A stretch of 62,756 bases of DNA, the filler included, from Chrysochromulina tobinii (taxonomy: Eukaryota), in assembly GCA_001275005.1 (NCBI GenBank). It is 4 parts of 4 records of this genome, joined end to end, with 100 filler letters (N's around TTAATTAATTAA, not from the genome) between each part and the next. Parts side by side here need not be neighbours in the genome. Positions count along the whole stretch, not along the records: positions 41,367 to 59,713 come from JWZX01001024.1; 3 more parts are not named here. One strand, given 5' to 3'. Under the pieces are notes generated by a model. It saw only the letters and a list, made by a program, of their open reading frames with translations. It made no database searches and had not been told where the DNA came from. Of this stretch, positions 1,911 to 61,445 are shown one piece after another (positions within the stretch are counted from its first letter, which is position 1; every line of letters begins with the position of its first letter). The position numbers and the translations under genes were made by a program.

Positions 1911-3230
1911 CGGAGGCGCTCGAGTTGCGCCTCGGTGTCCTTGAGCCGACTGCGGGCGCGCTGGACGGATTGCTGCGCCGTGGCCACATGCTGCTCGAGT
2001 CCGTGCGCCTGCACTGCTGCCTGCACCGCCGCCTGCATGGCGCGCTCCCGCCTCAACGCCGCCTCAGCTGCCGCCACCTTGGCGGACGTTTGCTCAGAGG
2101 CGGCTGCCTTGATGGCGGCGGCCTCCGCGACGCCCGCTGGCTCGGCGAGTTGCGCATCAGCGACGGCCGCGTCGTACATCAGCGCGGCCGTCACTACAGC
2201 CTCTTGCGCGGCCGCCTCGACCGCCGCTGCCTCCTCTGCATCACTCGCTGCCGCCTCGGCCGCCGCTTTGGCTGCGAGGAGCAGCTGCACCTTGGCGTGA
2301 GCCTCCGCCTCGGACCTGATGAGGGACGCAATCAGACGTCATCAGATGAGCAATGAGACCCTATCAGATGTCATCAGAGGAGCCATGAGACGAAATCAGA
2401 CGTCGTCAGAGGAGCCTTGGCGCCTCGGACCTGGCGAGTTCAAAGACGCATCGCGCCTGCTCCGCCTCCGAAGCCCTGAGGATCGGGTCGTCGCCATCGG
2501 GTTCGGCGCTCGTTCCAATGCCGGAAACGGTGCGCGACCGACCACTCGTCGCTCGCTCTTGCATGACCGGCAGCGGCGGCGCGGCGCTCATCGCACGCTC
2601 TTGCATGCAGGGCGCTGCGAGTCCGCCTGTACTCGTCGCCCGATCCTGCCCGGCGATGGGTGGCGCAGTACTCGTCGCGCGGTCTTGTAGGGCAGGAGTG
2701 AGGTGTATGCTACTGGGAGAGGTGAGCATGGGATTGGATCCGTTGCAGGCAGCTGCGCCAGCATCGAAGGGTGTAGAGGCGGTACGCTGGACGGGGCTGG
2801 AAGCACTGGCTTTTGTAGTAGGATCGAGCGACTGTGAGCGACTGGCTTGCTGAGATGGAGGCAGATTCGAAAAGTGCGGCTGCGCGGGCGTGGGCGGGAG
2901 TGCCGGATGCGGAGATCGGAGTGCATCGGCTATCCTCATGAGCGGTGGTTTGGGCGGCTGAGCAGGCATCGGCCGCTGCGGCATGTTGGCTGGCCGGTCG
3001 CTCGGGGCAGGCGAATACGAATCGTATGAGTACTGTGATGAGGACCTTGCGGGTGAGTACTGCTGCGAAGAGGAGGACCTTGCGGAGGAGTACTGTGAGT
3101 AAAGCTCATCCTCGTCATATCGCTCGCCCTCCTCTTGGGGCGCGTCCCCATCATTGGCCACATCATTTGACGATGCTGGCGGGTCGTCGTAGTAGGAATA
3201 CGAGGATTCGGACCTCGTGTCCGCCATCAT
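1013..3230 (-). CDS. Low-complexity protein of unknown function (Ser/Tyr-rich N-terminus, Ala-rich coiled coil, polyQ, Pro-rich); two exons
   Basis: ORFs 2406-3230 and 1013-2290 join in frame by removing GT..AG intron 2316-2430 (115 nt, phase 2): ...ELAR|SEAEAHAKVQLL. The 3' end is uncertain because it runs into a minisatellite. Confidence 0.65.
1777..1909 (-). repeat. Coding CAG/CAC/CAA trinucleotide tract (about 44-codon polyQ with His interruptions)
   Basis: (ctg)n run on the + strand with three ttggtg interruptions. Confidence 0.95.
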
Positions 3231-20459: not shown

Positions 20460-23400
20460 ATGACCATAGGCTACTTCTTCGCCTTGGGCTCGGCGTTTTT
20501 CAATGGCATCTTCGTGGCGTTTATGAAGATACCGTCTGTCGCAGCGACCAAACTACATCCGGTGCTCTTCAATGGGTACGTGAGTCTGGGCGTCTTCCTC
20601 TCATCATGGCTGGTTGTGCCTTTCTTCCAGCTGGCCGGCACCTCACTTGCATTCACGTGGTTTGGCTTCCTGGCCGGCGCGATCTTTGTGATCGCAAGCT
20701 CATTCAGCTTCATCGCGGCCAGCAATATTGGTCTGAGCACCGGCCAGGGCGTTTGGGGCGGGACGGCCATCGTGGTCTCCTTTTTGTGGGGCACGCTCGG
20801 GCCGGAGCCCATCTGCGCGCCCGTGCAGTCAGTCGCGCTCTCGCTCGTTGCCGTCGGACTGCTCCTCATCGGTGTGCTCGGCATCGTTAAGAGCGTGCCC
20901 ATTGGCGACGCGCTCGGGAGGCTGTGCGAGGCGCGCGCCCGGACGTCAGCTGTCGACTCGGCGGCAGTGCGGCTGCACGAGTCGGTGGTGGCGTCCGACG
21001 ACCCGGTGGTGGCGTCCGACGACCCGGCGGTGGGCGGTGGTGCACCAGCGGTGGACGGCAACGCGGCCGCGGCCGCCTCCGCCGCCTCGACCCGCGCTGT
21101 CGGCCTCGCAGCAGCCCTCATGGTAGGTCTCTTCGGTGGGTCCGTCCTCGTGCCCGCGTCGTTTGCTGGAGAGGCCTTCAGCGGCCAGAAGGCGATTGCC
21201 TTGCTGCCCTCGTTTGGCATCGGCGCTCTGAGCATGGCGCTGCTGACCACCGGGAGCTGGTATGCAAGGCTGCTCTCACGCGGCGAAGCGCCGCCGCTTC
21301 ATCTTCGGGCTGCCTTGTGGGCGGGCTGCCTGAGCGGTGCCACCTGGAACGCGGGGAACCTCTGCTCGATTGTCGCGATCAACTACTACTCGGTGCCGTT
21401 TGGGGTCGCGTACCCGTTGCTACAAGCGAGCCTCGTCTTCGGTGGGTTGCTCGGTATCTTCGTCTTCGGAGAGCTCAAGAAACGAAAGGCGATCGCCGTC
21501 TTCTTCGCGTCCGCGGCGCTCGTGCTCGGTGGCGCGGTGCTGCTCGGGATGTATGGGCCGTCCAAGTCGGCCTCGCCCTCGCCCATCGCCTCGCCACCCG
21601 CGCCACCAGTGAGGGCGACCCTACTAGCTCCAGTTTCGTCATCGGCGACCCTGATGCCGTCGTGGGCGACCCTAGAGGCTCCGGTGCCGACGCTCGACGC
21701 GGCGAGCGGTGACGAGCCGCCCTCTGCCCCCTGGTCGCCCACCGCGCCGCCTGCTGCTCCCCCCTTGGACCACTTGCTCGAGATCACGAAGGTGATGGTC
21801 ACGGTCACCAGCCTGAACGTGCTCGGCTACTTTCTCAAGCGCGCCTCCGATGCGGGTGCCCGGGCGGAGCGTGGGCTTGGCTTCCTCATAGGGAGCGTCG
21901 CGCTGCCCGCCCTGATCATGCACTCGCTCGCCACTATCGACCTCACGACGGTCGACTTCGACGTGCTCGCGGCCGTACTCATTGCCAAGCTCGGCATCCT
22001 CATCCTGGGCGCCATCATCGGCTACCTTGGGCGTAAGAGCCACGCGGCAGGCGATGGCGCGATGCGCGCGGGTGCTGTGGCCCTCTTCTGCACCAACTCG
22101 GATGACATCGGGTTGGCGTACCCCTTCTTCCTCGGCCTCTTCCCCGAGGAGAAAGCAAACATCCTCTTCCTCCTCTCGGCCGCGCAGGCGCTGCTCATCG
22201 CGCCGTGGTGTTTTGTGCTCATGGAGATAGGCGACGGCCAGGCGAAGGCAAGGGCCAAGTCGAGGGCCAAGGCCAAGGCGTTGTGCGAGCTCCCGCAGGC
22301 CGTCCTCCCGCAGGCCGTCCTCCCACAGGCCGGTGGAGCTCTGGAATCCTCCTTGAGCACTTGCTTCCTCGACTCGGTCTCTTCCCAAGCCGCCATCAAT
22401 GGGATGACGTCTTCGGACAGGGCGCCCAGGACGGCGCCCCCACTTCGAACGCAGGGCAACAAGATCGTCCTGCGGAAAGTGCTGCTCAACGCGGCGCGCA
22501 ATCTCGCGTGCAACCGGCTCATCCTGAGCGCGCTCGCCGGGCTGCTGTGGAATCTCATCTTTGGCCCGGTGCTGCCCTGGTATGCCCTCGAGCAGCGCTT
22601 GATTGCCTCGAGCAGCGCTTGATTGCCTCGTGATTGCCTCGTGATTGCCTCGTGATTGTCTCGTGATTGCCTCGTGATTGCCCCTTGATTGCCTCATGAT
22701 TGACCCTTGATTGTATTTTGATTGCTTCTGAGCGTCTCCCTCATCAGGTATATTGAGCAGCCCATTACGTCGCTCGCGCATATGTCCCAACCGCTCCTCC
22801 TGATCTTGGGTGGCATGTCGCTCGTGGGCACTGGCAAGGCGGTCGATTCGCTTGGCAAGGTGGCACTGCCCGCCGCAATCGTGGCGGTCAAGGTGCTGGT
22901 GCTGCCCAACATTATCAGCGTGCTCGCAATCGAGTTCAGCGTAGACTCGAGCTCCGAGCAGTTCTCGTTCGAGTTTGGGCTCGTCCCAGCCGCCGCATCG
23001 ACCATGGTGATGGTGGGCCAATTCGGCGCATCGCAGGAGCTCATGCTCATGCTCTCGGGTGCGTATGCAATCGGCAGGGCGCTCTCGATCTTTCTGCTCT
23101 TCGTCTTCGCCGCTCTGCTCACGATTCCATCCGGCGAGCCGATGCGCGCTTTGATCACACATACGTGCGTCGTGATGCACGCGCTGTCCTTGTGCGGCAC
23201 GTTGTGGATCGTGCTCCTCGCCATCATGCTGCCGCGCTACCGCACCCACGCGCCGCACGTGCGTGTCATGGGGCTCACGCTTCTTCAGCTCGCCTTCTCC
23301 GCCTCCTTCCTCGCCGTCGGCCAGGACCGCATCCTGCACGATGGCACGAGCGATGAGCGCCTGACACTCTTCACCATCGTCAACTCGTTTCGCTGGGCAG

Positions 23401-25057: not shown

Positions 25058-27465
25058 CTACTCCTCCTCCTCTTGCTCTTCCTCAGGGGCCGCCATGAGC
25101 GATCGGATGAGGCTGTCCGCGCCGATGATCTTTTTGACCGACTTAATGGATTTACTCCACTTGCCCGGGCCGGCACCTCCCGAGCCAGCTCCCGCAAAGA
25201 GGGCAAGCACGCCGGTCGCCTTGGTGTCGCCGATGGTAGGTGCCTGAGGCTCGGGCTCGGTCGCAGCAGCAGGTGCGCCGTCCACCTTCGCCGGGCTCGA
25301 GCCCTTCGCAGAACGTGGACGTGGGGAGGGCGTCCGACGACCCGGTGTGAAAAGCGTAGTGACCGTCGACATCGTCTTGAGGTCGTCAATCTTCAACGCC
25401 TCGACATGCTCGAGGCCGCCCTTGCGTTGGATCTCGATCTTGCGCCTTCGCAGGATTCCCTCGATCAGCTTGAAGTTCGGCACGTCCGGGTTCTCGCCGC
25501 TCGTGGCCGTCTGGTACAGTGCGAACAGCTCTTTCTCCGGCAGCTCGGGCGACGCATTCATGATGCATCCGGCGAAGACGTCGAAGCTCTCCTCCCCACC
25601 GGCCGCTTTCACCCATGTCTTGTAGATGCCAGTGAGGATCTCGGCGTCCTTATCTTGCTGCCTGAGCATGCCCTCCACGGACAGGTCCAGAAACTGGAAC
25701 AGCGTCAGGTGCCCTCGGGAGTCCAGATCCGGCTTCCCGAGGTACTGCCTCTTGTAATTCGGAAAGGGCAGGTCGTTCTCGTCCTTTATCTTTGCTTTGG
25801 CCTTCTGATTCTGGGTTGCAGTCTGCAGGATCATACGCTGGAGTCGATCGTGGAGGTCTTTGTGACTCTTCTCGAACATGCGCTTGATCGTGTTGAGGCA
25901 CACAAACACGGGCACGGAGATCTGCGTCATCGAGCCGATCATGTTCCAGAAGGCACCGATGCTTTTGAGCCCGAGCGTGTGCTCGTCTCCTATCGTCTTT
26001 GAGATACCATCGAGCATGTCAATGTAAAACTCGAACTCCTCGTTCGGCGTGCGCTCCTCAACCGGCACGCCGTGCCACGAGCCTTTCCAGAAGGGCATCA
26101 GAAATGGCTCGCCCTCCGTCAGACCCTTCTTCTCGTCCTTGCGGTAGCGCTCCACGCGCACGCCGTACAGGAACTCGTTGATGTTCTTGATCGCGAGCGA
26201 CTTGATGCCGTACAGCACCATAAACTGATCGGGGATGAACTCAGGGAATGGCTGGCGATCGCGCTGCTGCTTGTCGGCCTCGATGTTGGCCTCAATCTTG
26301 ACCTGGTAGAGCGCCGAGAGCAGCCGGCGGCACATGAGCACGTTCATCGCCTTGACGTCCTTTCGGTTGAACTTGATCTCGCACAGGGAAGTCACACACG
26401 ACGTTGGCATCATGCGTTTGCCATCGCCGCCATCACCGCCTACCTCCTCGACCGCACCACCTCCCGAAGGCCTTTGGCTCATCGAGACCATCGACTGCCC
26501 CGCCTGGCACCCAATATCAGCGGTATCGTCGCCGCCTGCGCCGCCGCCGCCCCTGCGGCCGCCGCCGCCCCTCTTGGCAAGCTGCCCCTCAAGTCGCTGC
26601 AGCTCGATGAGCTCCTCGGGCGTTAGCTCGCCCGCCGCCTGCCGTCGCTTTAGATCAGCGAGGCGCGCCGCCAGCTCGTCCTCCTCGGCTGTGCCGCCGC
26701 CCTTGCCGCCGCCCTTGCCACCGCCCTTGCCGCCGCCCTTGCCACCTCCGTTTCTGTGGCCAGCTAGCAGAGCGCGACGTTCCTCCTCCGTCAGATTCGG
26801 GTCCATCAGCTTCTCAAGGAGCTCGTCCATCCGCTTCTTCTCGGCGTCGAACTCCTTTTGCATGCGGCGCTCCATCTCCCGCAACCGACGCGCGAGCTCC
26901 GCCTCCATATCGAAGTCATCGTCGCTGTTACCTTTGCCGCCCTTGCCGCCCTTACCGCCCTTACTTCCTTTTCCCTTTTTGTCCTTGTCGATCACGCTTT
27001 CGAGCTCCTTCATCCTGGCTTCGAGCCGCCTCAGCTCCTCCTCCTCCTCGGGGGTGAGCTGCCCGAGTGCCTGACGCCGCTTGAGGTCTGCGATGCGCGC
27101 GGCCATCTCCGCTGCCTCCCTCTCGGCGTCTGAGAGCTCGTCGCCCTTGCCGCCCTTGCCGCCCTTGCCCATTGCCGCGTCTAGCTCCTTCATCCTGGCT
27201 TCGAGTCGCCTCAGCTCCTCCTCCTCCTCGGGGGTGAGCTGCCCGAGTGCCTGACGCCGCTTGAGGTCTGCGATGCGCGCAGCCATCTCTGCTGCCTCCC
27301 TCTCGGCGTCTGTCATTTCTTTGCTGCCCTTGCCGCCCTTACCTCCTTTTCCCTTTTTGTCCTTGTCGATCACGCTTTCGAGCTCCTTCATCCTGGCTTC
27401 GAGTCGCCTCAGCTCCTCCTCCTCCTCGGGGGTGAGCTGCCCGAGTGCCTGACGCCGCTTGAGGT
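25058..27465 (-). CDS. 5'-truncated protein with tandem helical repeats and a TSNAXIP1-like/EF-hand-like C-terminal region
   Basis: Frame open to the contig edge; EMAARIADLKRRQALGQLTPEEEEELRRLEARMKEL repeats. LYQVKIEAN..PFPEFI..FMVLYGIKSLA resembles TSNAXIP1-type flagellar proteins (tentative). Confidence 0.7.
26970..27465 (-). repeat. Near-identical coding tandem repeat (about 130-bp core, 180-200-bp period, at least 3 copies, cut by contig end)
   Basis: Cores at about 27002-27132, 27182-27312 and 27381-27465 are almost base-identical. Confidence 0.9.
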
Positions 27466-41932: not shown

Positions 41933-44900
41933 ATGCCTTCGAAGCTAGCCGCGCGCTTGCTGCAGATCGAAGATAAGTTCGAGAAGCAGCAGCTTCTTGA
42001 AGGCGATGGGAGCTTCAAGAAGTCGACGGGAGCAGCTGCTGTTTCGTCGACTTCTCCCATCGCGGCTGACGCTAAAGGAGCGGCTGCTCTGAACCCCGCA
42101 TCGAGGAGCAGCCCCACATCGAGGAGCAGCCTCGATGAGGAGCAGCCGCCCTCGGTGAAGTGGGGTGTGGAGCACTCGTATGGTGTGGCCGTGATGAGAG
42201 ACATGCAGCACAGCCCCAGGTGGCAGCAGTACATGCAGGACTTGCAGGTGTACAAGATGATGCAGGCAACGGATCGCACGCTACCGATGTCCATGGCAGC
42301 TCGCTCGCCACGGCATCTCCGCGAACACGGGAGTCGACTCGTGCCGCCAGCGCAGCCGAAGCCAAAGGCTCTGACCAAAGTCCGCAAGGAAAACGCCAGT
42401 CGCACTCTTGCCGAGATCAACGAGCCTTGGACGCCGATGAAGCTCGTCAGAGACGTTGGCCACGCGATGATGAGCCTCGTCAATGGCTTCCTGGAGCAGG
42501 ATTTTGAGGTGCAGATTTTGATCATCGTCATGATGATCAGCGCGTTCTTCTCGGTGCGGAATGGGGTGCATGGGTTCCTGGTGCATTACAAGTACGAGAG
42601 CCTGTACGCGGACGGGCAGGCGCCGCCAATGCCGCCTGCGCCGCCCGTGGCGCCAAACTGGAAAGTGTCCGCCTCGGACGCGGCGGTGTCGTTTGCGCTG
42701 AAGCACCCCGTGATCTACTTGCTAATCGACTACGGGATCGCACTGATCATTGGTGCCCTCGTCTACTTTATGGATGACATCAAAGCCTTCAACGAGCGGC
42801 AGCGCCTTCGAAGGCGCGCCCGCGAGCAGCGCAAGGCCGGGTACGTGCCTGTTGGCGACAGGCTGCGCGCTGCTGGACGGATGGTAAAGGTCATCCGATC
42901 CATCATCACTTTTGCTTTCAGCGACCTTGCGAAGACAGTCAAGTCGCCGCGCACTAAGGTCAAGCAGCTCGTCGATCCCGAGGACCCGCCACAGCAGCTA
43001 GATACCGAGGACGACCTTCGCATGGCGCGGACGCGCGAACACGATCTCATCGAAGAGCTCGAGATCAAGGCCAAGGTGCATGCGCTTGATTGCGCTTGAT
43101 TGCGCTCGATTGCGCTTGATTGCGCTTGATTGCACTTGATTTCGCTTGATTGCGCTTGATTGCTTCGGATTGCCCAAGCGGATGCAGGTGCATGCGCTTG
43201 ATTGCGCTTGATTGCGCTTGATTGCGCTTGATTGCGCTCGATTTCGCTTGATTGCGCTTGATTGCCTCTGATTGCCCATGCTGGTGCAGGTGCATGCGGC
43301 CGCTGGCTCGCCCTTGAGCGCGGCGCTCCAGAACCGCCTCAAGCTGCACAAGGAGCGCCAAGCCCTCATCAAAGAAGCTCTCAAGGGCATGCTCGGCGAA
43401 CAAGCCGAGAAAAGCAGCAGTGCTCCTGTTGTTGCCAAACCGCCACTTGCGGGGGGTGGCGGGTTCTTACATGATCTCGCCAAGAGCCCGATTGTGACGG
43501 TGCTCAAGAACTCGCTCAATGGCTTCGTCAGCGTCTTCTTCTTCTTTGCGGACGTCGTCTCCGATATCGCCGTCATCGTCCTGTTGTACGAAACCGAGAA
43601 TTACGAGTGGGCACTGATGGCGGCAGCTGCACTCGCAGCCCAATTCTTTGTCATGTACATGCGATGCCTGCCGTATCTGCGCAGCACATTTGGGGCAGAA
43701 AGCTGCCTGACGCGGACGTTCACGTACATTGGCTTGCCCATCGGTCTCCTCATCCTCGACATCCTCATGCTCCTCGAGCCGTTTGGCTTGCTCACCGTCC
43801 TGCCGCTGCCCATCTGGCTCAAACAGTTCATCCCTGCGTGTGAGCGCCCTAAAGGCCAATCCATGGCATTGCATGCCAAGGCCCGCCACTCCATGGCATA
43901 GCATAGCATTGCATGGCATGGTCTTTCCCGAGACCTCTCCCGAGACCTCTCCCGAGACCTCTCCGGGCCCTTGCCACCGCCCAGCCGGCTGATCACCACG
44001 GCGCCCGCTGACCACCACCGTCCCTCGCCTGTGCAGACAAGGCAACGCGTGTGATCGTCGAGATCGCCGTCGAGAGCCTTCCGCAGAGCCTGCTGCAGTC
44101 GTACATCCTCATTGTGGTGGTCTGGCAGACGCAGGCGGGAACAGCGTCGCCGGAGGTGCTCGCGATGGTCCCTAACGTGAAAACCATGTCCCTATCGATC
44201 ACCCTCTCGACGCTTGCCATCCTCAAGACGTGGATCGAGGTCGTGCAGCAGTCGCGCGAGGCGGGCATCTCCGTGCCAACAAAGGCTAGGCAGTTGTGGG
44301 ACGTCGGTGCCGGTCTGCCACTAGACGCGCTCAAAAAGGGCTCTATCGTTGATTGGGCGTGCACTTACGTGCTCAACAAAGCGGAGATTCCGCCCCTGAT
44401 CGATGCGCTAGGCAAGAACACGTCGCTGAGCCGGCTGAACCTTGCGAAGGCTGGTTTTGAGTGGGACCGTGCGGGGGGAAGCGCGAGCCCGATTGTCGAG
44501 GCACTCAACAAGGAGCCGACGGCGCTGGCCGGGCTGCACAAGCTGGTGATCAACGATGTAAATGAATTTGAGATACCGATGGGTGAGATACGGGGCGGGC
44601 AGAAGCGGGCACTCGCGGCGCTCGAAGGGCTCACGTTCTTTGCGCTGGGGCACAACCAAGGGCCTTGGCACGTGGACATCATGGTCATGGGCGACGTGCT
44701 GCGGAAAAACCTCGACTGGCGGATGGCGACGGATCGCGAGACGCAGATGGGCGATGAAGTCATGCGGCTCCTAGAGGATGCGCACGCCGGCCATCTCTCT
44801 CGCAAGGACTGGGAGGAGCGTACCAAGTTCCTCATGGCGAGTGGCGACCTGCGCCGATCTCTCCTGCAGAGCCTCGTGAGTGCCGAAATTTTGCGCCAAA

Positions 44901-47386
44901 TAGGCTTTAAGTCCAAGGACCTCATTAGCGCCGGTGTCAGCCTCTTGAAGCTCAAGAGCGGCCGGTTCACAGTTGCTGAGCTGCGCGAGAGCGGCGTCAG
45001 CGTAGGCGACCTAAGCTCGACTCGTTATTCGGCCGCGGAGCTCCGGGAGGGCGGCGTGGCGGCGGCCGAACTCTTGCCGCTCAAATATGAGCCCCGCATC
45101 ATGCGCGACGGCGGCTACTCCGCGGCGGAGATGCGCGCCGCCAAGTACCAGCTTGCGGACCTCAAGGGTGTGTATACAGCGAAAGAGCTGTACGAGGCAG
45201 AGTACCCGGCGGCTGAGATGCGTCGAGTCGGCTTCGAGGCCGCCGAACTTAGGGCGGCGCAGTGGCCGGCTGAGATGCTGCGTAAGGGCGGCTACTCGGC
45301 GACGGAGATTCGGGAGGGCGGCTTCAACGCATCCCAGACCCGCGAAGCTGGATATACCGCCACCGAAGCGACTGCGGCGGGCTGGGCGCTCGCGGAGATG
45401 AAGGGCGCCAACTACGATGCAGCCGAGCTGCGCAAAGCGATGCACACTGCGGAGGCAATGCGGGAGGCGGGCTTCACGGCGGCAGCGATGAAAGCCGCCA
45501 AGTATCCCCCGAAGGAGCTCTACGAGGCGGGGTACAGCGTCGAGGAAATACGCAAGGCCGGCACCGGGGTCCCGGAGCTCATGGCGGCCGGCGCGACGAT
45601 CGCGGAGATCCGCCTGTCTGGCGTCTCGGCGGCTCAACTCAAGATCGAGGGCGTGAAGCTCAAGGACATGCGGCTCGGCGGCTACACGTGCAAAGATGTC
45701 AAAGCAGCGGGCTACAAGTGCAAGGAAGTCAAGGCCGCAGGCTTCGTCAAGGGTCTCAAGGAGGCTGGCTACACGGTCAACGAAGCCGTTGCGGCGCAGT
45801 ACAGCTGCGAGGAGCTCTACAAGGGCGGGTACGCCGCGGAAGAGCTGCTCGCGGTCGGCTTCAAGCCGCTCGAGATGCGCGCAGTCGGATACGATGCCAG
45901 GGCCCTGCAGGCCGCGGGGGTGACGCTGCCCAATCTGCGGTCGGCAGGCGTCCAGGTGCGCGACTTGCGCAGTGCCGGGTACGGATACGATGAGCTGCGC
46001 CTCGTGGGCGTCAAGGCTGCTGAGCTCAAGGAGGCGTCTGCGACCGCTGCTGAAATGAAGGAGGCAGGCTATCCACTGGAGGAGTTTTACAAGTTCTTCA
46101 GTGTCTCCGAGCTTCGCGATTGCGGCTTCTCGTGCGAGGAGCTGCGGGTTGTGGGCTTCCGTGCAAAGGAGTTGCTGTCCACCGGGGCCACGAATCGCGA
46201 GCTGCGCGACGGCGGGTACAGCGCTGGCGAGCTGCGCGAGATCGGTCTCACAGCAAAGGAGCTCAAGGCCTTGCAGTTCACCTGCGCGGAGCTCAAGCTG
46301 TGTGGGTTCAACGCCAAGCAGCTTGCGAACGTAAACTTCGGCGCGCATCAGCTCAAAATGGCCGGCTTTCGTCCGCGGCAAGTCAAGGAGAGCGGCTTCA
46401 AGGGAGCTAGCGTCTTCGGACTTGCCGAACTCAAAGCCGATGGGTTCAAGGTGCCTGAGCTGCGTGACGATGAGGGCTTCACGCTCGACCAGCTGCGCGT
46501 CTGCTTCAGCGTTGAGGAGCTGCGGCTCGGTAATGTCACAGCGAAAGAGTTGCTCAAATGCGGCTACTCGCTCGAGGCCATGCGAAAAGGCGGCTTTGAC
46601 GCGTCGCAGCTGCAACAGGCGGGGTACGGCGTCCTCGATATGAAGAAGGCAGGCTTTACGTGCGTCGAGGTTCGACAGGCCGGATTCGTGGAAGGGATCA
46701 TGGAGGCAGGCTACACGTGCAAGGAAGCTCGAGCAGCTGGGTACGTTGATGACATCAAGCGGGCTGGCTACTCCGTGTCGGACCTCAAGGCGGTAGGATA
46801 CACCTTTGCCGAAGTGCGAGCCGCGGGCTACGTACAAGGGATCAAGGCTGCTGGTTACACTGCCAAGGAAGCAAAGATGGACCGCTTCCCTCCAAAGCTG
46901 CTCCGAGCTGCCGGCTTCACATGCTCAGAGGCGAAGCAGGGTGGTTACGTCAAGGAGCTCAAGGCGGCTGGCTACACTCCGCAGGAGGCGCGAGAGGCGG
47001 GATGCACGATTGACGACGTCAGGGAGTGCGGATATATCGAAGGCCTCTGCGCTGCTGGCTACACTGTTAGGGAGTGCTTTGAAGCCAACTTTGCATGCAA
47101 GCACGCGCGCTTGGCGGGCTTCGTCGAAGGCTTCAAGTCCGCCGGGTACACGCTTACAGAGGCAAAGGTTGCGGGCTTTACACCCGAGGGCTTCAGGCGT
47201 GCCGGCTACTCGGGCGAGGACTTCAAAGTCGCAGGGTTCACTTGCAAGCAGGCCAAAGAATCGGGCTACTCGGCCAAAGACGCAAAGGCGGCGGGTTGGT
47301 CGTTCGGTGAACTATCTGAAGCTGGCTACGTCATGCAGTTCACCCAAATCCCCCCTAACGGCCAGTTGACCCCCGCCGAAGTTTAA
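41933..47386 (+). CDS. Membrane protein with XK-related (Xkr)-like TM domain, LRR-like segment and a long (A)G(Y/F)(S/T)AxELxx decapeptide-repeat tail; three exons
   Basis: In-frame exons 41933-43075, 43290-43839, 44037-47386 (IKAK|VHAA; IPAY|KATRV). FFADVVSDI and EIAVESLPQSLLQSY are XK-family hallmarks; LGKNTSLSRLNL is LRR-like. Confidence 0.8.
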
Positions 47387-48863: not shown

Positions 48864-50384
48864 CTACGAGACGATGCAGAAGCTCGAGCCGCCCCGCGCG
48901 TGATGGCTGCTAGGAGCCTGAGGCTCCTCGATGGACGCTTCTTCTCCTGCCTCCAGGGCGGCGGCATCGCTCGCAATGAGAGCCGCAAGCTCGTCTACGG
49001 CGGTGACGCCGTCGCAGTACTGCGCAGCCTCTTGCGCGCTCACACCGCGCCCCATGAGCTCGAGGAGTTGCGCCTCGCGCGCTTGCTCCTTAGCGTCCAT
49101 CTCTGCGGACAGACGCAACTTCCTGCCCACCTCATCGTCATCAGTGGCCGCGGGCAGAGGCACGAGCAACGGAGAGCCCGGGGGCAGCCCCGCGGGCACG
49201 AGGACTGCAAAGCGGCCGAAGGGCGTGTCCATCAAGACAGACTTGCCCGCCCCTTTAGGGATACGGATGCACACCCATCGCAGCCCCGTCTCGTCTGTCC
49301 GTACATCCCCTAGGACTCCATTCAAGAGAGTCGGCTCCACCACGGGGAAGACGCCGGTCGCATTGACGGCGCGGCGCGCCCACTGACGTGCAGAGAGTTC
49401 CTCGAAGGTGGCCGCCTCGACACGCCGCACGGCCTGCACGCGTGTGGAGACATCAAACGCACTCAGGCGCACTCGGACGCACTCAGACGCACTCAGACGC
49501 ACTCAGACGCACTCAGACGCAATCGATGGCAACCAGGGGCCAGCAGAGGCCATCAGAGGCCATCAGAGGCCATCAGACCTGCTCCACTGCCTCAGGATCG
49601 TCCAAATTAGGGTCGTCCTCCTCGCCCTCCTCGTCAGCCACCTCCGGAGCCTTCGCCGCCTTCTCGGCCGCTGGATGAGACGACGCCGACGCAGCCCCCG
49701 CCCCCGCCGCCGCCGCCTGTGCCTCTTCAAACTTGCGTTGGAGAGCGGCGAGCTCGACCTGCAGCCGCAGGGCCTTCTCCTCAGCAGCTAGGGTAGCCTG
49801 ACGCGCTCGCTCCTCCGCCTCCCGGACCGCCTCCGCCGCCTCCCGGCGCGCCGTCTCGGCGCCTTGCCGACGTGCGCGCTCCTCCACCTGTCGGTCTCCA
49901 GAGGGGCGCAATCAAGCGCAATCAGTGCCAATCAAGAGCAATCAGCATGCAATCATCGCTCCTCCACCTGACGTCGCACGCGCGTCTCGATTTGATGAGG
50001 CTAGCAATCAGTCGCACTCAGCATGCAATCAGCATGCAATCAGCATGCAATCAGCATGCAATCAGCATGCAATCAGCATGCAATCATCGCTCCTCCACCT
50101 GACGTCGCACGCGCGTCTCGACCTCTCGAGCTTGCTCCTCCTCTTCTTGCTGCCGCTGCTCGTGCAGCGCCACCCGCTGCTGCTCCTGCTGCTGCCGCCG
50201 TATCCGGTCCTTCTCGCGCTGCCGCCGCTGCCTCTCGCGCTCTTGGCGCAGCGCTAGCTCGGCGTCCGCTTGCTGTCGCCGCGCCTCCGCCTCCTCCTCT
50301 CGTGCCTCGTGTAGCCGCTGCTCGCGCTTGCGCATCTCGTCGACGGCCTCGGCGGAGGCGGCGGAGGCGGCGCAGGTTGGTAAC

Positions 50385-50426
<42 letters not shown>

Positions 50427-51187
50427 ATCTCCAGCTGCTGGCGCAGCCACTCGACGCGCTGCGCCTCCCACCGACGCGCCTTCTCCTGTCGATCCTCCGC
50501 AAGCGCCGCCGCCACCGCTTCGGTATCATCCTCGCCGACGACGCCGCCGCCCTCGCCGTCCTCGGCGCGGTCCTGGGCGCTGCCAGCGTCGCCGGCGTCT
50601 GCGTCGCCCGCGTCGCCGCTGTAGCCGCCGCCGCCGCCGCTCTTATCCATGAGGAGTAGCGTCGGACCGTCCCACGCGCGCCGCCACTCGCGTCGGTGCT
50701 GCAGCCGCTCCTGCATGTCGTAGCGACGCCGGCGCTCCGGATCGCTGAGCACCGAGTATGCCGTCTGCAGCGCGGTGAAGCGCTCGAGCGCCTCTTGCGG
50801 GTCGATGCCGTTGCGGTCCGCCGCGTCCGGGTGGTAGCGCATCGCGAGCAGCCGGTACTGCTTCCGCAGCTGCGCCTCGGTGAAGTCCCGTGGCACGCCG
50901 AGCATCGCGTAATGCGAGGGCGTGAGGTTGACGCGAGCCGCGACGGTGCGCATCACCTCGGTGCCCGTGCGCGTCGGCCAGCGCATCCGCTCCTGGATGG
51001 TGCCAGCCGCGGTGAGGCCCCCTGAGAGAACATGGTCCAGCCCACGAGGTGGCGGATGCAGGATCGCCACCGGCGTTGTGGGCTTCGACGTGGGTCGGAC
51101 ATCACCGAGCTTCGCCCGTGGCCGGCGCGGGATTGGAGCTACGATGCGCTCCTGGATGCCGCCCGAAGTACTGAGGTGATGCGACAT
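48864..51187 (-). CDS. DnaJ (J-domain) protein with coiled-coil and polyQ region; three exons
   Basis: HYAMLGV..LRKQYRLLAMRYHPD..AYSVLSDPERRRRYD. Exons 50099-51187, 49579-49887 and 48864-49433 join in phase 0. Confidence 0.85.
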
Positions 51188-58950: not shown

Positions 58951-59713
<763 letters not shown>

Positions 59714-59813: not shown

Positions 59814-61445
59814 GTGCTGCGTCTGTGCATCGCTGCTCAGCGAAACAGATCCACCCGAGGCTCGCAAGAGGTTAGCTTCCTCGCAACACCGAGCATGCAC
59901 GGTTGATGCAACCCATCTGGAAGGTCGACCGACGACACAATGCAAAGAGCAGATCGATGAGGCCGCTTCCTGCCGGCTGCTGCGACACGTGTAGATGCGT
60001 CTAGCACGAGTGCTGCGTATGTGCATCGCTGCTCAGCGAAACAGATCCACCCGAGGCTCGCAAGAGGTCAGCTTCCTCGCAACACCGAGCATGCACACAC
60101 GGTTGATGCAACCCATCTGCAAGGTCGACGACGCAATGCAAGGTGCAGATCGATGAGGCCGCTTATTGCGGCTGCTCCTACACGCGTAGATGCGTCTAGC
60201 ACGAGTGCTGCGTCTGTGCATCGCTGCTCAGCGTCACAGATCCACCGCCGAGGCTCGCAAGGTCAGCTTCTTTGCTTGACCAAGCATTGTTGTCGCCGTC
60301 TTGGACTCAAGTGCACTGTCGTCGACGCAATGCATGTGCGGATAGATCAGGCAGCTTCCTGCGGCCGCTGCTACACGCGTAGATGCGTCTAGCACAAGCG
60401 CTGCGTCTATGTATAGCTGCTCAGCGTGACAGATCCACCGCGCGCCGAGGCTCGCAAGGTCAGCTTCCTTTTGCTTGACGAAGCATTGTTGTCGCCGTCT
60501 TGATGGACTCAAGTGCACTGTCGTCGACGCAATGCATGTGCGGATAGATCAGGCAGCTTCCTGCAGCTGCTGCTACAGACGCGTAGATGCGTCTAGCACG
60601 AGCGCTGCGTCTGTGTATAGCTGCTCAGCGTCTCAGATCCACCCGAGGCTCGCAAGGTCAGCTTCCTCGTAACACCGAACATGAGCACGACTTTGCTTCT
60701 GTAAAACAAGGCCACTCAACGCAGCGGTGTGTCGTGCTATACACATCTAGGCGTGTAGCGGTAGTGTAGCGATGTAGCCGCCCGAAACGGCGTCCTCGAT
60801 GTGCACCGTCGCATCGTCGAGCATGCAGACGGGTTGCGTCGAAGGTCGCACCAAAACCTTGCTCATGCTTCTGTGCAGCAAGGCCACTCAACGCAGCGGT
60901 CACATCATGGCGTGGGGTAGTGAGCGCAGGACGCGGCGTCCTTGATGTGCACATGCATCGCGCGCGGCGTCGTCGAGCAAGGTCGACTTCCTCGCAAGAC
61001 CAAGCATGAGTATGGTTGTCGCCACCTTGGACTCAAAGTGCACCGTCGACGACGCGCAATGCATGTTCGGTGTTTTGCGAGGAAGCTGACCTTGCGAGCC
61101 TCGGGTGGATCTGAGACGCTGAGCAGCGATGTACAGACGCAGCACTCGTGCTAGACGCATCTACACGTGTCGCAGCAGCCGCGAGAAGCTGCCTCATCGA
61201 TCTGCACTTGCACTGTGTCGTCGACCTTGCAGATGGGTCGCATCAACCGTGCTCATCCTCGGTGTTACGAGGAAGCTGACCTTTTGCGAGCCTCGGGTGG
61301 ATCTGAGAAGCTGAGCAGCTATACACAGACGCAGCGCTCGTGCTAGACGCATCTACGCGTCTGTAGCAGCAGCCGCAAGAAGCTGCCTCATCGATGTGCA
61401 CTTTACATTCGTCGTCGACCATGCATAGGGTCGCATCAACCTCTG
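59814..61445. repeat. Non-coding array of about 200-bp units: five forward and two inverted copies
   Basis: Core TAGATGCGTCTAGCAC..GCTGCTCAGCG..CAGATCCACC..GAGGCTCGCAAG..GTCAGCTTCC near 59814 (partial), 59992, 60187, 60380 and 60584; reverse-complement cores near 61070-61165 and 61260-61355. Confidence 0.9.

Follow-up and report, generated by a model that had tools for sequence, protein, structure and literature searches.

The closest described systems are introner families. The family reported from Chrysochromulina sp. makes a 4-bp duplication and carries the 5' splice site (Gozashti et al. 2022, bioRxiv 10.1101/2022.06.06.494994), and introner classes 4/5 and 6/8/10 are distinguished in Polarella and Symbiodinium, those of Polarella carrying the 3' site and producing 4- or 8-nt duplications (bioRxiv 10.1101/2020.10.14.339549). 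Introner families without target-site duplications are also described, hence a variable duplication does not bar membership of the introners. In Daphnia pulex, staggered double-strand breaks are held responsible for the direct repeats of neointrons (Li et al. 2014, PMC4202315), and tandem duplication of exonic sequence at AG/GY is given in part of a study of Drosophila as the explanation for some near intron pairs, less than 32 nt apart (Lehmann et al. 2010, PMC2891723). Literature searches gave no description of the present intron class, with its variable duplications, although the supplements of the introner preprints may list it; the main text of PMC12130899 contains no mention of Chrysochromulina or haptophytes, and the opening part of PMC11282704 contributes nothing specific. 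Replitrons were also considered, one locus being reported in C. tobinii in part of PMC10288648, and nothing at the intron described here links to them. Intron gain, shifts by a few codons and the merging of introns are usually inferred from distant species. In the present case the duplicated copies are still identical, a second allele is public and look-alikes recur, so that population reads of a single alga could test in which order the events took place and what became of the spare splice sites.

The intron lies in a window of 62,756 nt (filler included) from C. tobinii assembly GCA_001275005.1, within a DnaJ-domain gene on the minus strand. It is 211 nt long and is built of two modules, both from an intron class with TGATTG repeats that is very abundant, and the locus behaves like one introner-type insertion placed next to another. 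It departs from the systems above, as far as the cited parts of those papers describe them, in several ways. Firstly, the duplications of introners are fixed at 4 or 8 nt, whereas those of this class range from 9-11 to at least 35 nt, around a body that is a branch-point-like minisatellite. Secondly, the Chrysochromulina introner carries the 5' site, the reverse of the arrangement here. Thirdly, unlike introners, the insertion at this locus copied the donor of a neighbouring intron. Fourthly, the locus is like D. pulex in that young introns grow by later duplications and gains occur in parallel at one site (RRQ|V, in the distant locus L002), but the source of the Daphnia inserts is mostly unknown and their repeats are internal to the intron, whereas this insert belongs to a recognisable high-copy family and its duplication reaches the exon. 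Fifthly, it shares with the Drosophila cases an AG/GY proto-splice start and two potential intron positions 24 nt apart, yet the intron here consists of more than duplicated exon, since foreign family sequence separates the copies, and the new position has been given up. We favour, at a probability of roughly 0.58, a history in which a second TGATTG/CCTCATCAG-class intron arrived 24 nt upstream of one that was already there, and later lost its acceptor. A single locus of this kind changes no protein and is modest in itself, its value being that of a readable example of a variable-duplication intron class.

The gene (PF00226, E 2.5e-20; J domain at about residues 91-156 by Pfam) is flanked by a light-harvesting protein gene on one side and a mitochondrial carrier gene on the other, on a eukaryotic, GC-rich contig. 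Its three exons (Table 1) give a spliced product of 655 aa, and an intronless orthologue (L003) is continuous across both exon junctions. A public Chrysochromulina parva gene model (P0006) is 100% identical to the N-terminal part and covers 66% of the query, which marks the host as a haptophyte of the Chrysochromulina type; the model leaps from shortly after the J domain into the final exon, missing about 370 residues that are supported in part by RNA contigs and L003. This gap is probably a mis-annotation, and such introns may mislead gene models more generally, the whole region being omitted in this one. Exon 1 also contains a CAG repeat (50386-50426, minus strand), and the length of its poly-Q tract varies across alleles P0001-P0003 and P0121-P0134.

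Table 1. Features of the DnaJ-domain gene and its first intron, and other introns of the same class, in window coordinates
Feature	Position	Strand	Basis
Exon 1; ATG at 51187, ends ...EVETRVRRQ	50099..51187	-	RNA contig over 50088-50315
Proto-splice site AG|GTCGAG within the exon, at which the duplication has its left edge	50117..50124	-	sequence
53-nt duplication, upstream copy: takes in the coding exon end, the donor in use (50098) and the first part of the intron	50069..50121	-	coding use from RNA contigs
Intron 1, GT-AG, 211 nt, phase 0	49888..50098	-	RNA joint; absent from mature RNA
Array of module A, with the 11-mer TGATTGCATGC repeated 6.6 times	50014..50086	-	TRF; many similar unitigs of other loci
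Module A end, CCTCATCAA|A against family end CCTCATCAG|G	49991..50000	-	family ends; junction unitig
24-nt pseudo-exon, would read IETRVRRQ (coding copy: VETRVRRQ)	49968..49991	-	not in RNA joints
Inner copy of the 53-nt duplication; intact CAG|GTGGAG at 49968/49967	49938..49990	-	sequence
Module B, 80 nt, 10-mer TGATTG variants, ends GGAGACCGACAG	49888..49967	-	same 3' end in P0154
Exon 2 (VEERARRQ...)	49579..49887	-	RNA contig; orthologue L003
Intron 2, 145 nt, repeat-rich; class intron, 1-nt exon-copy start	49434..49578	-	RNA joint with skip 145 in X13 and X14
Exon 3, to stop	48864..49433	-	RNA contigs; orthologue L003
Class intron, 10-nt exon-copy start	2316..2430	-	
Class intron, 4-nt exon-copy start	22580..22747	+	
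Class intron, 1-nt exon-copy start	59247..59335	-	

Removal of the first intron is directly visible in RNA. A CT..AC joint of 211 nt (49876 to 50088, cut +11), equivalent to excision of 49888-50098, occurs in contigs from two of the four RNA runs (X13 and X14), at depths of 34.2 and 2.3, and the mature RNA joins 50099 to 49887, with the protein matching L003 across the junction. The original prediction had named junction use in RNA as a check and had held that the protein was unchanged; the excision of the whole intron in two runs, and the agreement with the intronless orthologue, bear this out. Hence the composite intron behaves as an introner should, being spliced out to leave the mRNA unaltered, which does not hold for module A alone. 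The X13 contig extends over 1100 nt with 11 other letters, so a diverged strain makes the same mature RNA. No joint at this intron is listed for X15 or X16, and an unspliced X16 contig over 49558-49915 says nothing about it. Another X13 contig, on 49986-50042 with seven differences before it diverges, was taken for a different locus. Joints that use the inner copy or include the 24 nt are absent from the contigs of all four RNA runs, which drop rare forms, and none is listed at the cryptic in-frame acceptors TAG at 50001 and GAG at 49986, which would add 11 or 6 residues. The 24 nt have an intact donor and CAA in the place of an acceptor, one intact site rather than the two of a true micro-exon.

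Recursive splicing at AG|GT ratchet points is described for very long animal introns. The DnaJ intron resembles such cases, as YAG directly abuts GT at the inner CAG|GTGGAG, the sequence of a ratchet point, and this site could split the intron into 131 + 80 nt. Recursive removal of the two parts, with a zero-length exon between them, could then yield the same product.

The duplication is longer than had been recognised. A 34-bp copy (49957-49990, matching 50088-50121) had been pointed out, and it is part of an exact repeat of 53 of 53 nt, in which the last 23 nt of the exon are followed by the 11-nt exon-copy that opens the intron, 1 further nt and some 18 nt of 11-mer array. In 100 second-order Markov resamples of 49800-50200, the longest exact repeat reached 15 nt at most, with a mean of 10.4. 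On the sense (minus) strand the inner copy is preceded by CCTCATCAA|ATCGAG (50000-49986) and the coding copy by GAG AG|G, the dead acceptor and the AG|GTCGAG of the real exon (50124-50117) both reading as claimed. The chance that the duplication is an assembly artefact, the reservation attached to the original prediction, is negligible. The region is rich in repeats, and locus L001 (99.97% identity) represents the same or a near-identical assembly and gives no independent support, but an 82-83-nt unitig over 49961-50042/3 is present without other letters in all three DNA runs examined. It reaches 31 letters on the short side of 49991/49992, and its depths of 86, 40 and 52, against 66-89, 32-39 and 39-60 in the flanks, are at the single-copy level. 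The flanking unitigs end at 49967 and resume at 50092, the 31-mer break expected of a two-copy 53-nt repeat. At 49991-49992, the bases that the prediction wanted verified, no other letter is listed in the unitigs of these three runs. The runs are probably from the cultured strain that gave the window sequence, and so they confirm the assembly rather than any spread in the population; runs X19-X21 contain next to none of the query words.

Moreover, P0221, an antisense ORF on a 2182-nt contig, is an independent allele carrying the duplication. Both copies are present, 120 nt apart as against 131, and the array has one 11-mer fewer and three residue changes, so that a second allele with a different array length adds to the junction unitigs in excluding an artefact. 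The P0221 reading frame gives D-L for AG|G and AA|A alike. Alleles were also sought via the antisense frame that separates AG|G (P) from AA|A (F), which gave 26 candidates, none of which scored, and none of 65 phmmer hits covers the junction in that frame.

Within the intron, the two modules are non-homologous, aligning only along a 30-nt start that they share and in the repeat word. Module A, on the 5' side, ends CCTCATCA and is a family copy in its own right, with five CTGAT branch-point-like words in its array, and module B is flanked by a 14-nt duplication (3 + 11). The letters by which the end of module A differs from the family lie at 49992-49991, where the plus strand has TT and CC is expected. 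Another locus supplies a 74-nt unitig that differs from 49993-50062 at six places and breaks off at these two changed bases, and loose ends read CCTGATGAGGGAG. Module A ends in exact register with the exonic AG|GT. AGGT occurs at six of 1968 CDS positions, only one of them in the last 302 nt of exon 1, and this one is the left edge of the duplication; we infer that the AG|GTCGAG there was the target of the second insertion. A plain tandem duplication that took in the exon end and the entire ancestral intron, with the two 3' ends diverging later, is a very improbable origin. Duplication of a whole intron has a precedent in the window at 43076-43289 (112 and 102 nt), but modules A and B differ in repeat unit and 3' end, yet the 53 nt they share are identical; furthermore, the end of B is kept in a diverged allele (P0154), and that of A matches another locus.

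Relatives of the gene suggest when each module was gained. All 26 close exon-1 ORFs, which form two groups (98-100% and 84-93% identity) and include some contigs called twice, continue through E-VETRVRRQ-VEE[R/P] to a stop, so that they share the RRQ|V donor and no ORF has an intron of its own at E|V. P0154, a diverged exon-2 ORF, begins with the translation of the module B 3' end, and P0007, P0010, P0016, P0153 and L003 are free of an intron at RRQ|VEER or its equivalent. The composite intron as a whole is thus absent from the orthologous site in relatives, as is typical of introners. Together, the shared donor, the P0154 end and the intron-free relatives indicate that module B was a lineage-specific gain older than the split between the two groups. 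The order B-then-A is read from sequence identity only: module A is probably the younger because the 53-nt copies are identical. Among the 80 loci listed in a metagenome scan with alignment A1, which covered 19 of 64 parts, L001-L005 resemble the gene family; L002 and L003 span the intron site, and the junction motif has no match in L004 or L005. At RRQ|V, the intron of L002 and of the P0012 cluster is built from a different repeat. The L002 intron, at about 2118-2254 in this distant relative, is a minisatellite with a unit of about 22 nt that starts GTGGA, and is likely a parallel gain.

The favoured history of insertion and subsequent acceptor loss would comprise the following steps. Firstly, module B would have entered at CAG|GTGGAG, the 14-nt duplication around it being the visible footprint of that event. 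Secondly, module A would have entered at AG|GTCGAG, duplicating at least 35 and up to about 54 nt, past the donor of module B. This would have placed two donors, all sites being in phase 0, upstream of the module A acceptor. With that acceptor intact, the donor at 50122 would restore the normal peptide, and the copied donor at 50098 would add an eight-residue unit. Thirdly, splicing from the copied donor to the module A acceptor would have produced a second VETRVRRQ, and the change of AG|G to AA|A would have closed this route, leaving the splicing seen today. On the other strand that change is CC to TT, typical of a single UV-type tandem change. The loss of the acceptor, as read from these two letters, would have to accommodate two adjacent changes beside 53 unchanged bases, such that a tandem mutation or an insertion error is needed. 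Also against this history, an intact AG|G allele was not found among the alleles that were searched, the duplication at module A is 3-5x longer than the 9-11-nt duplications of single introns in the window, and three window introns of the class show an exon-copy of only 1-4 nt.

The same adjacent changes bear on a different possibility, that module A came with a faulty or non-templated junction, AA for GG, such that a functional second intron or micro-exon never existed and nothing was ever lost. Under such an origin, two differences beside 53 identical bases would need no later mutation. The AG|G allele was not found; Daphnia neointrons often gain internal direct repeats, ascribed to staggered breaks in part of that account (PMC4202315); and the inner exon copy of P0176 comes after an array that is truncated and lacks the PDEG acceptor signature. 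Set against this, the odd bases sit precisely where the family end and the target both have G, with the length in register, and most of the family ends that can be read are intact, seven of eight xDEG signatures having P or S before DE, which is compatible with AG. Hence arrival in a defective state, though a serious contender, is unlikely.

The original prediction had envisaged two established introns around a used 24-nt exon, with loss of the first acceptor shifting coding to the upstream duplicate and merging the introns. Two modules in series are indeed present, whereas an established two-intron stage is improbable, as the module B donor was copied too. The upstream copy holds the CAG|GTGGAG donor that RNA uses today, which would therefore have competed from the start; the perfect identity of the copies suggests that any two-intron phase was short; and an independent intron at E|V is found in none of the 26 ORFs. 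These points make the proposal quite improbable, despite the fact that splicing from 50122 to 49992 and from 49967 to 49888 would give the same peptide with an intact acceptor. Short exons between family arrays are also common in antisense ORFs (P0202, P0214 and P0179), and P0189 has a 39-nt piece twice, the acceptor-side residue being L, compatible with AG, in one copy and V, which is not, in the other. Since the duplication also copied the module B donor, the 24-nt micro-exon was likely redundant from birth. The event at this locus therefore looks like a second insertion that was redundant on arrival, rather than the joining of two introns already established on either side of a genuine micro-exon.

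Within 30 nt, the end-to-end inverted matches of module A, module B and the whole intron reach 4 nt at best. Terminal inverted repeats of the DNA-transposon type are also lacking at the other introns of the window (0-6 nt). With a fixed 3' end, variable array and duplication lengths, and no clear terminal inverted repeat, the features would fit better with a staggered break mended by template-guided repair, or with an intron RNA copied by target priming, than with a cut-and-paste transposase. More tentatively, and at less than even odds, an undescribed process in Chrysochromulina-type haptophytes may add a branch-point minisatellite with a ready CCTCATCAG acceptor at AG|GY, copying a variable 9 to more than 50 nt downstream, even a neighbouring donor. 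Such a process would make redundant micro-exons, ratchet points and near intron pairs that are resolved by losing one splice site. If so, the DnaJ locus would show intron sliding and turnover captured midway, in a process whose stages may still segregate in lakes.

The class is far from confined to this gene. Between 464 and 479 contigs per DNA run fall on a 361-nt stretch at the intron, and the summed depth of the array rises to about 216,000-219,000 against about 75 in the flanks in X1, a rough measure that is not a copy number. Like introners, therefore, the class has many similar copies at unrelated loci. Within the window, two introns other than that of the DnaJ-domain gene end CCCTCATCAG|GT, as does L208, their family ends lying at 2316-2324 and 22739-22747. 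An exon-copy begins each of six window introns of the class, with lengths of 11, 10, 9, 4, 1 and 1 nt; hence the target-site duplication has no fixed length, ranging over 1-11 nt at these introns and reaching at least 35 nt at module A. Among the four class introns of Table 1 with exon-copy starts of 10, 4, 1 and 1 nt, the comparison with RNA covered the second intron of the DnaJ-domain gene. At 43076-43289 (plus strand), a whole intron is present twice head to tail, the copies being homologous throughout and meeting at CAG|GTGCAT with no exon between them, and the frame is open after removing both. From this arrangement, it is a candidate for two-step splicing.

Family-like sequence accounts for 50 of 65 hits to the antisense translation, and 13 of these 50 repeat a non-array piece of at least six residues, in a sample that is biased toward multi-array loci and was read only as protein. 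By eye, nine of the 13 (P0157, P0158, P0168, P0176, P0178, P0183, P0187, P0189 and P0211) have 18-45-nt pieces separated by array; P0161, P0193, P0194 and P0201 were set aside as other repeats. P0176 and P0189 are like the DnaJ locus in that an acceptor signature precedes one of the exon copies but not the other. Duplications of 18-45 nt are thus a recurring by-product of the intron class. In P0176, P0189, P0211, P0158 and P0187, exon pieces of 21-45 nt are repeated between arrays, with the acceptor signature on some of the copies.

Motif scans were extended to other genomes. In viral contigs there were 120 loose matches, three of which passed the repeat filter with none family-like, and two stricter patterns gave no match. 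Prokaryote genomes gave 11 matches, and of the two that were read (L202 and L208) only L208, at a 31-nt contig end, is family-like. This contig (L208/L212, G001:C520) is 1.5 kb long, belongs to a bacterial genome bin, and ends in family array and CCCTCATCAG|GT; it is likely algal contamination of the bin.

Tandem repeats of other kinds also occur in the window. Arrays lie at 875-1026 (11-nt unit, 13.8 copies), 59814-60683 (196-nt unit, 4.4 copies) and 26944-27465 (180-nt unit, 2.7 copies), the latter two adjoining assembly gaps of N. Finally, an open frame of 1124 aa at 44012-47386 (plus strand) contains many short repeats of the type L.EAG(F/Y)T..E.
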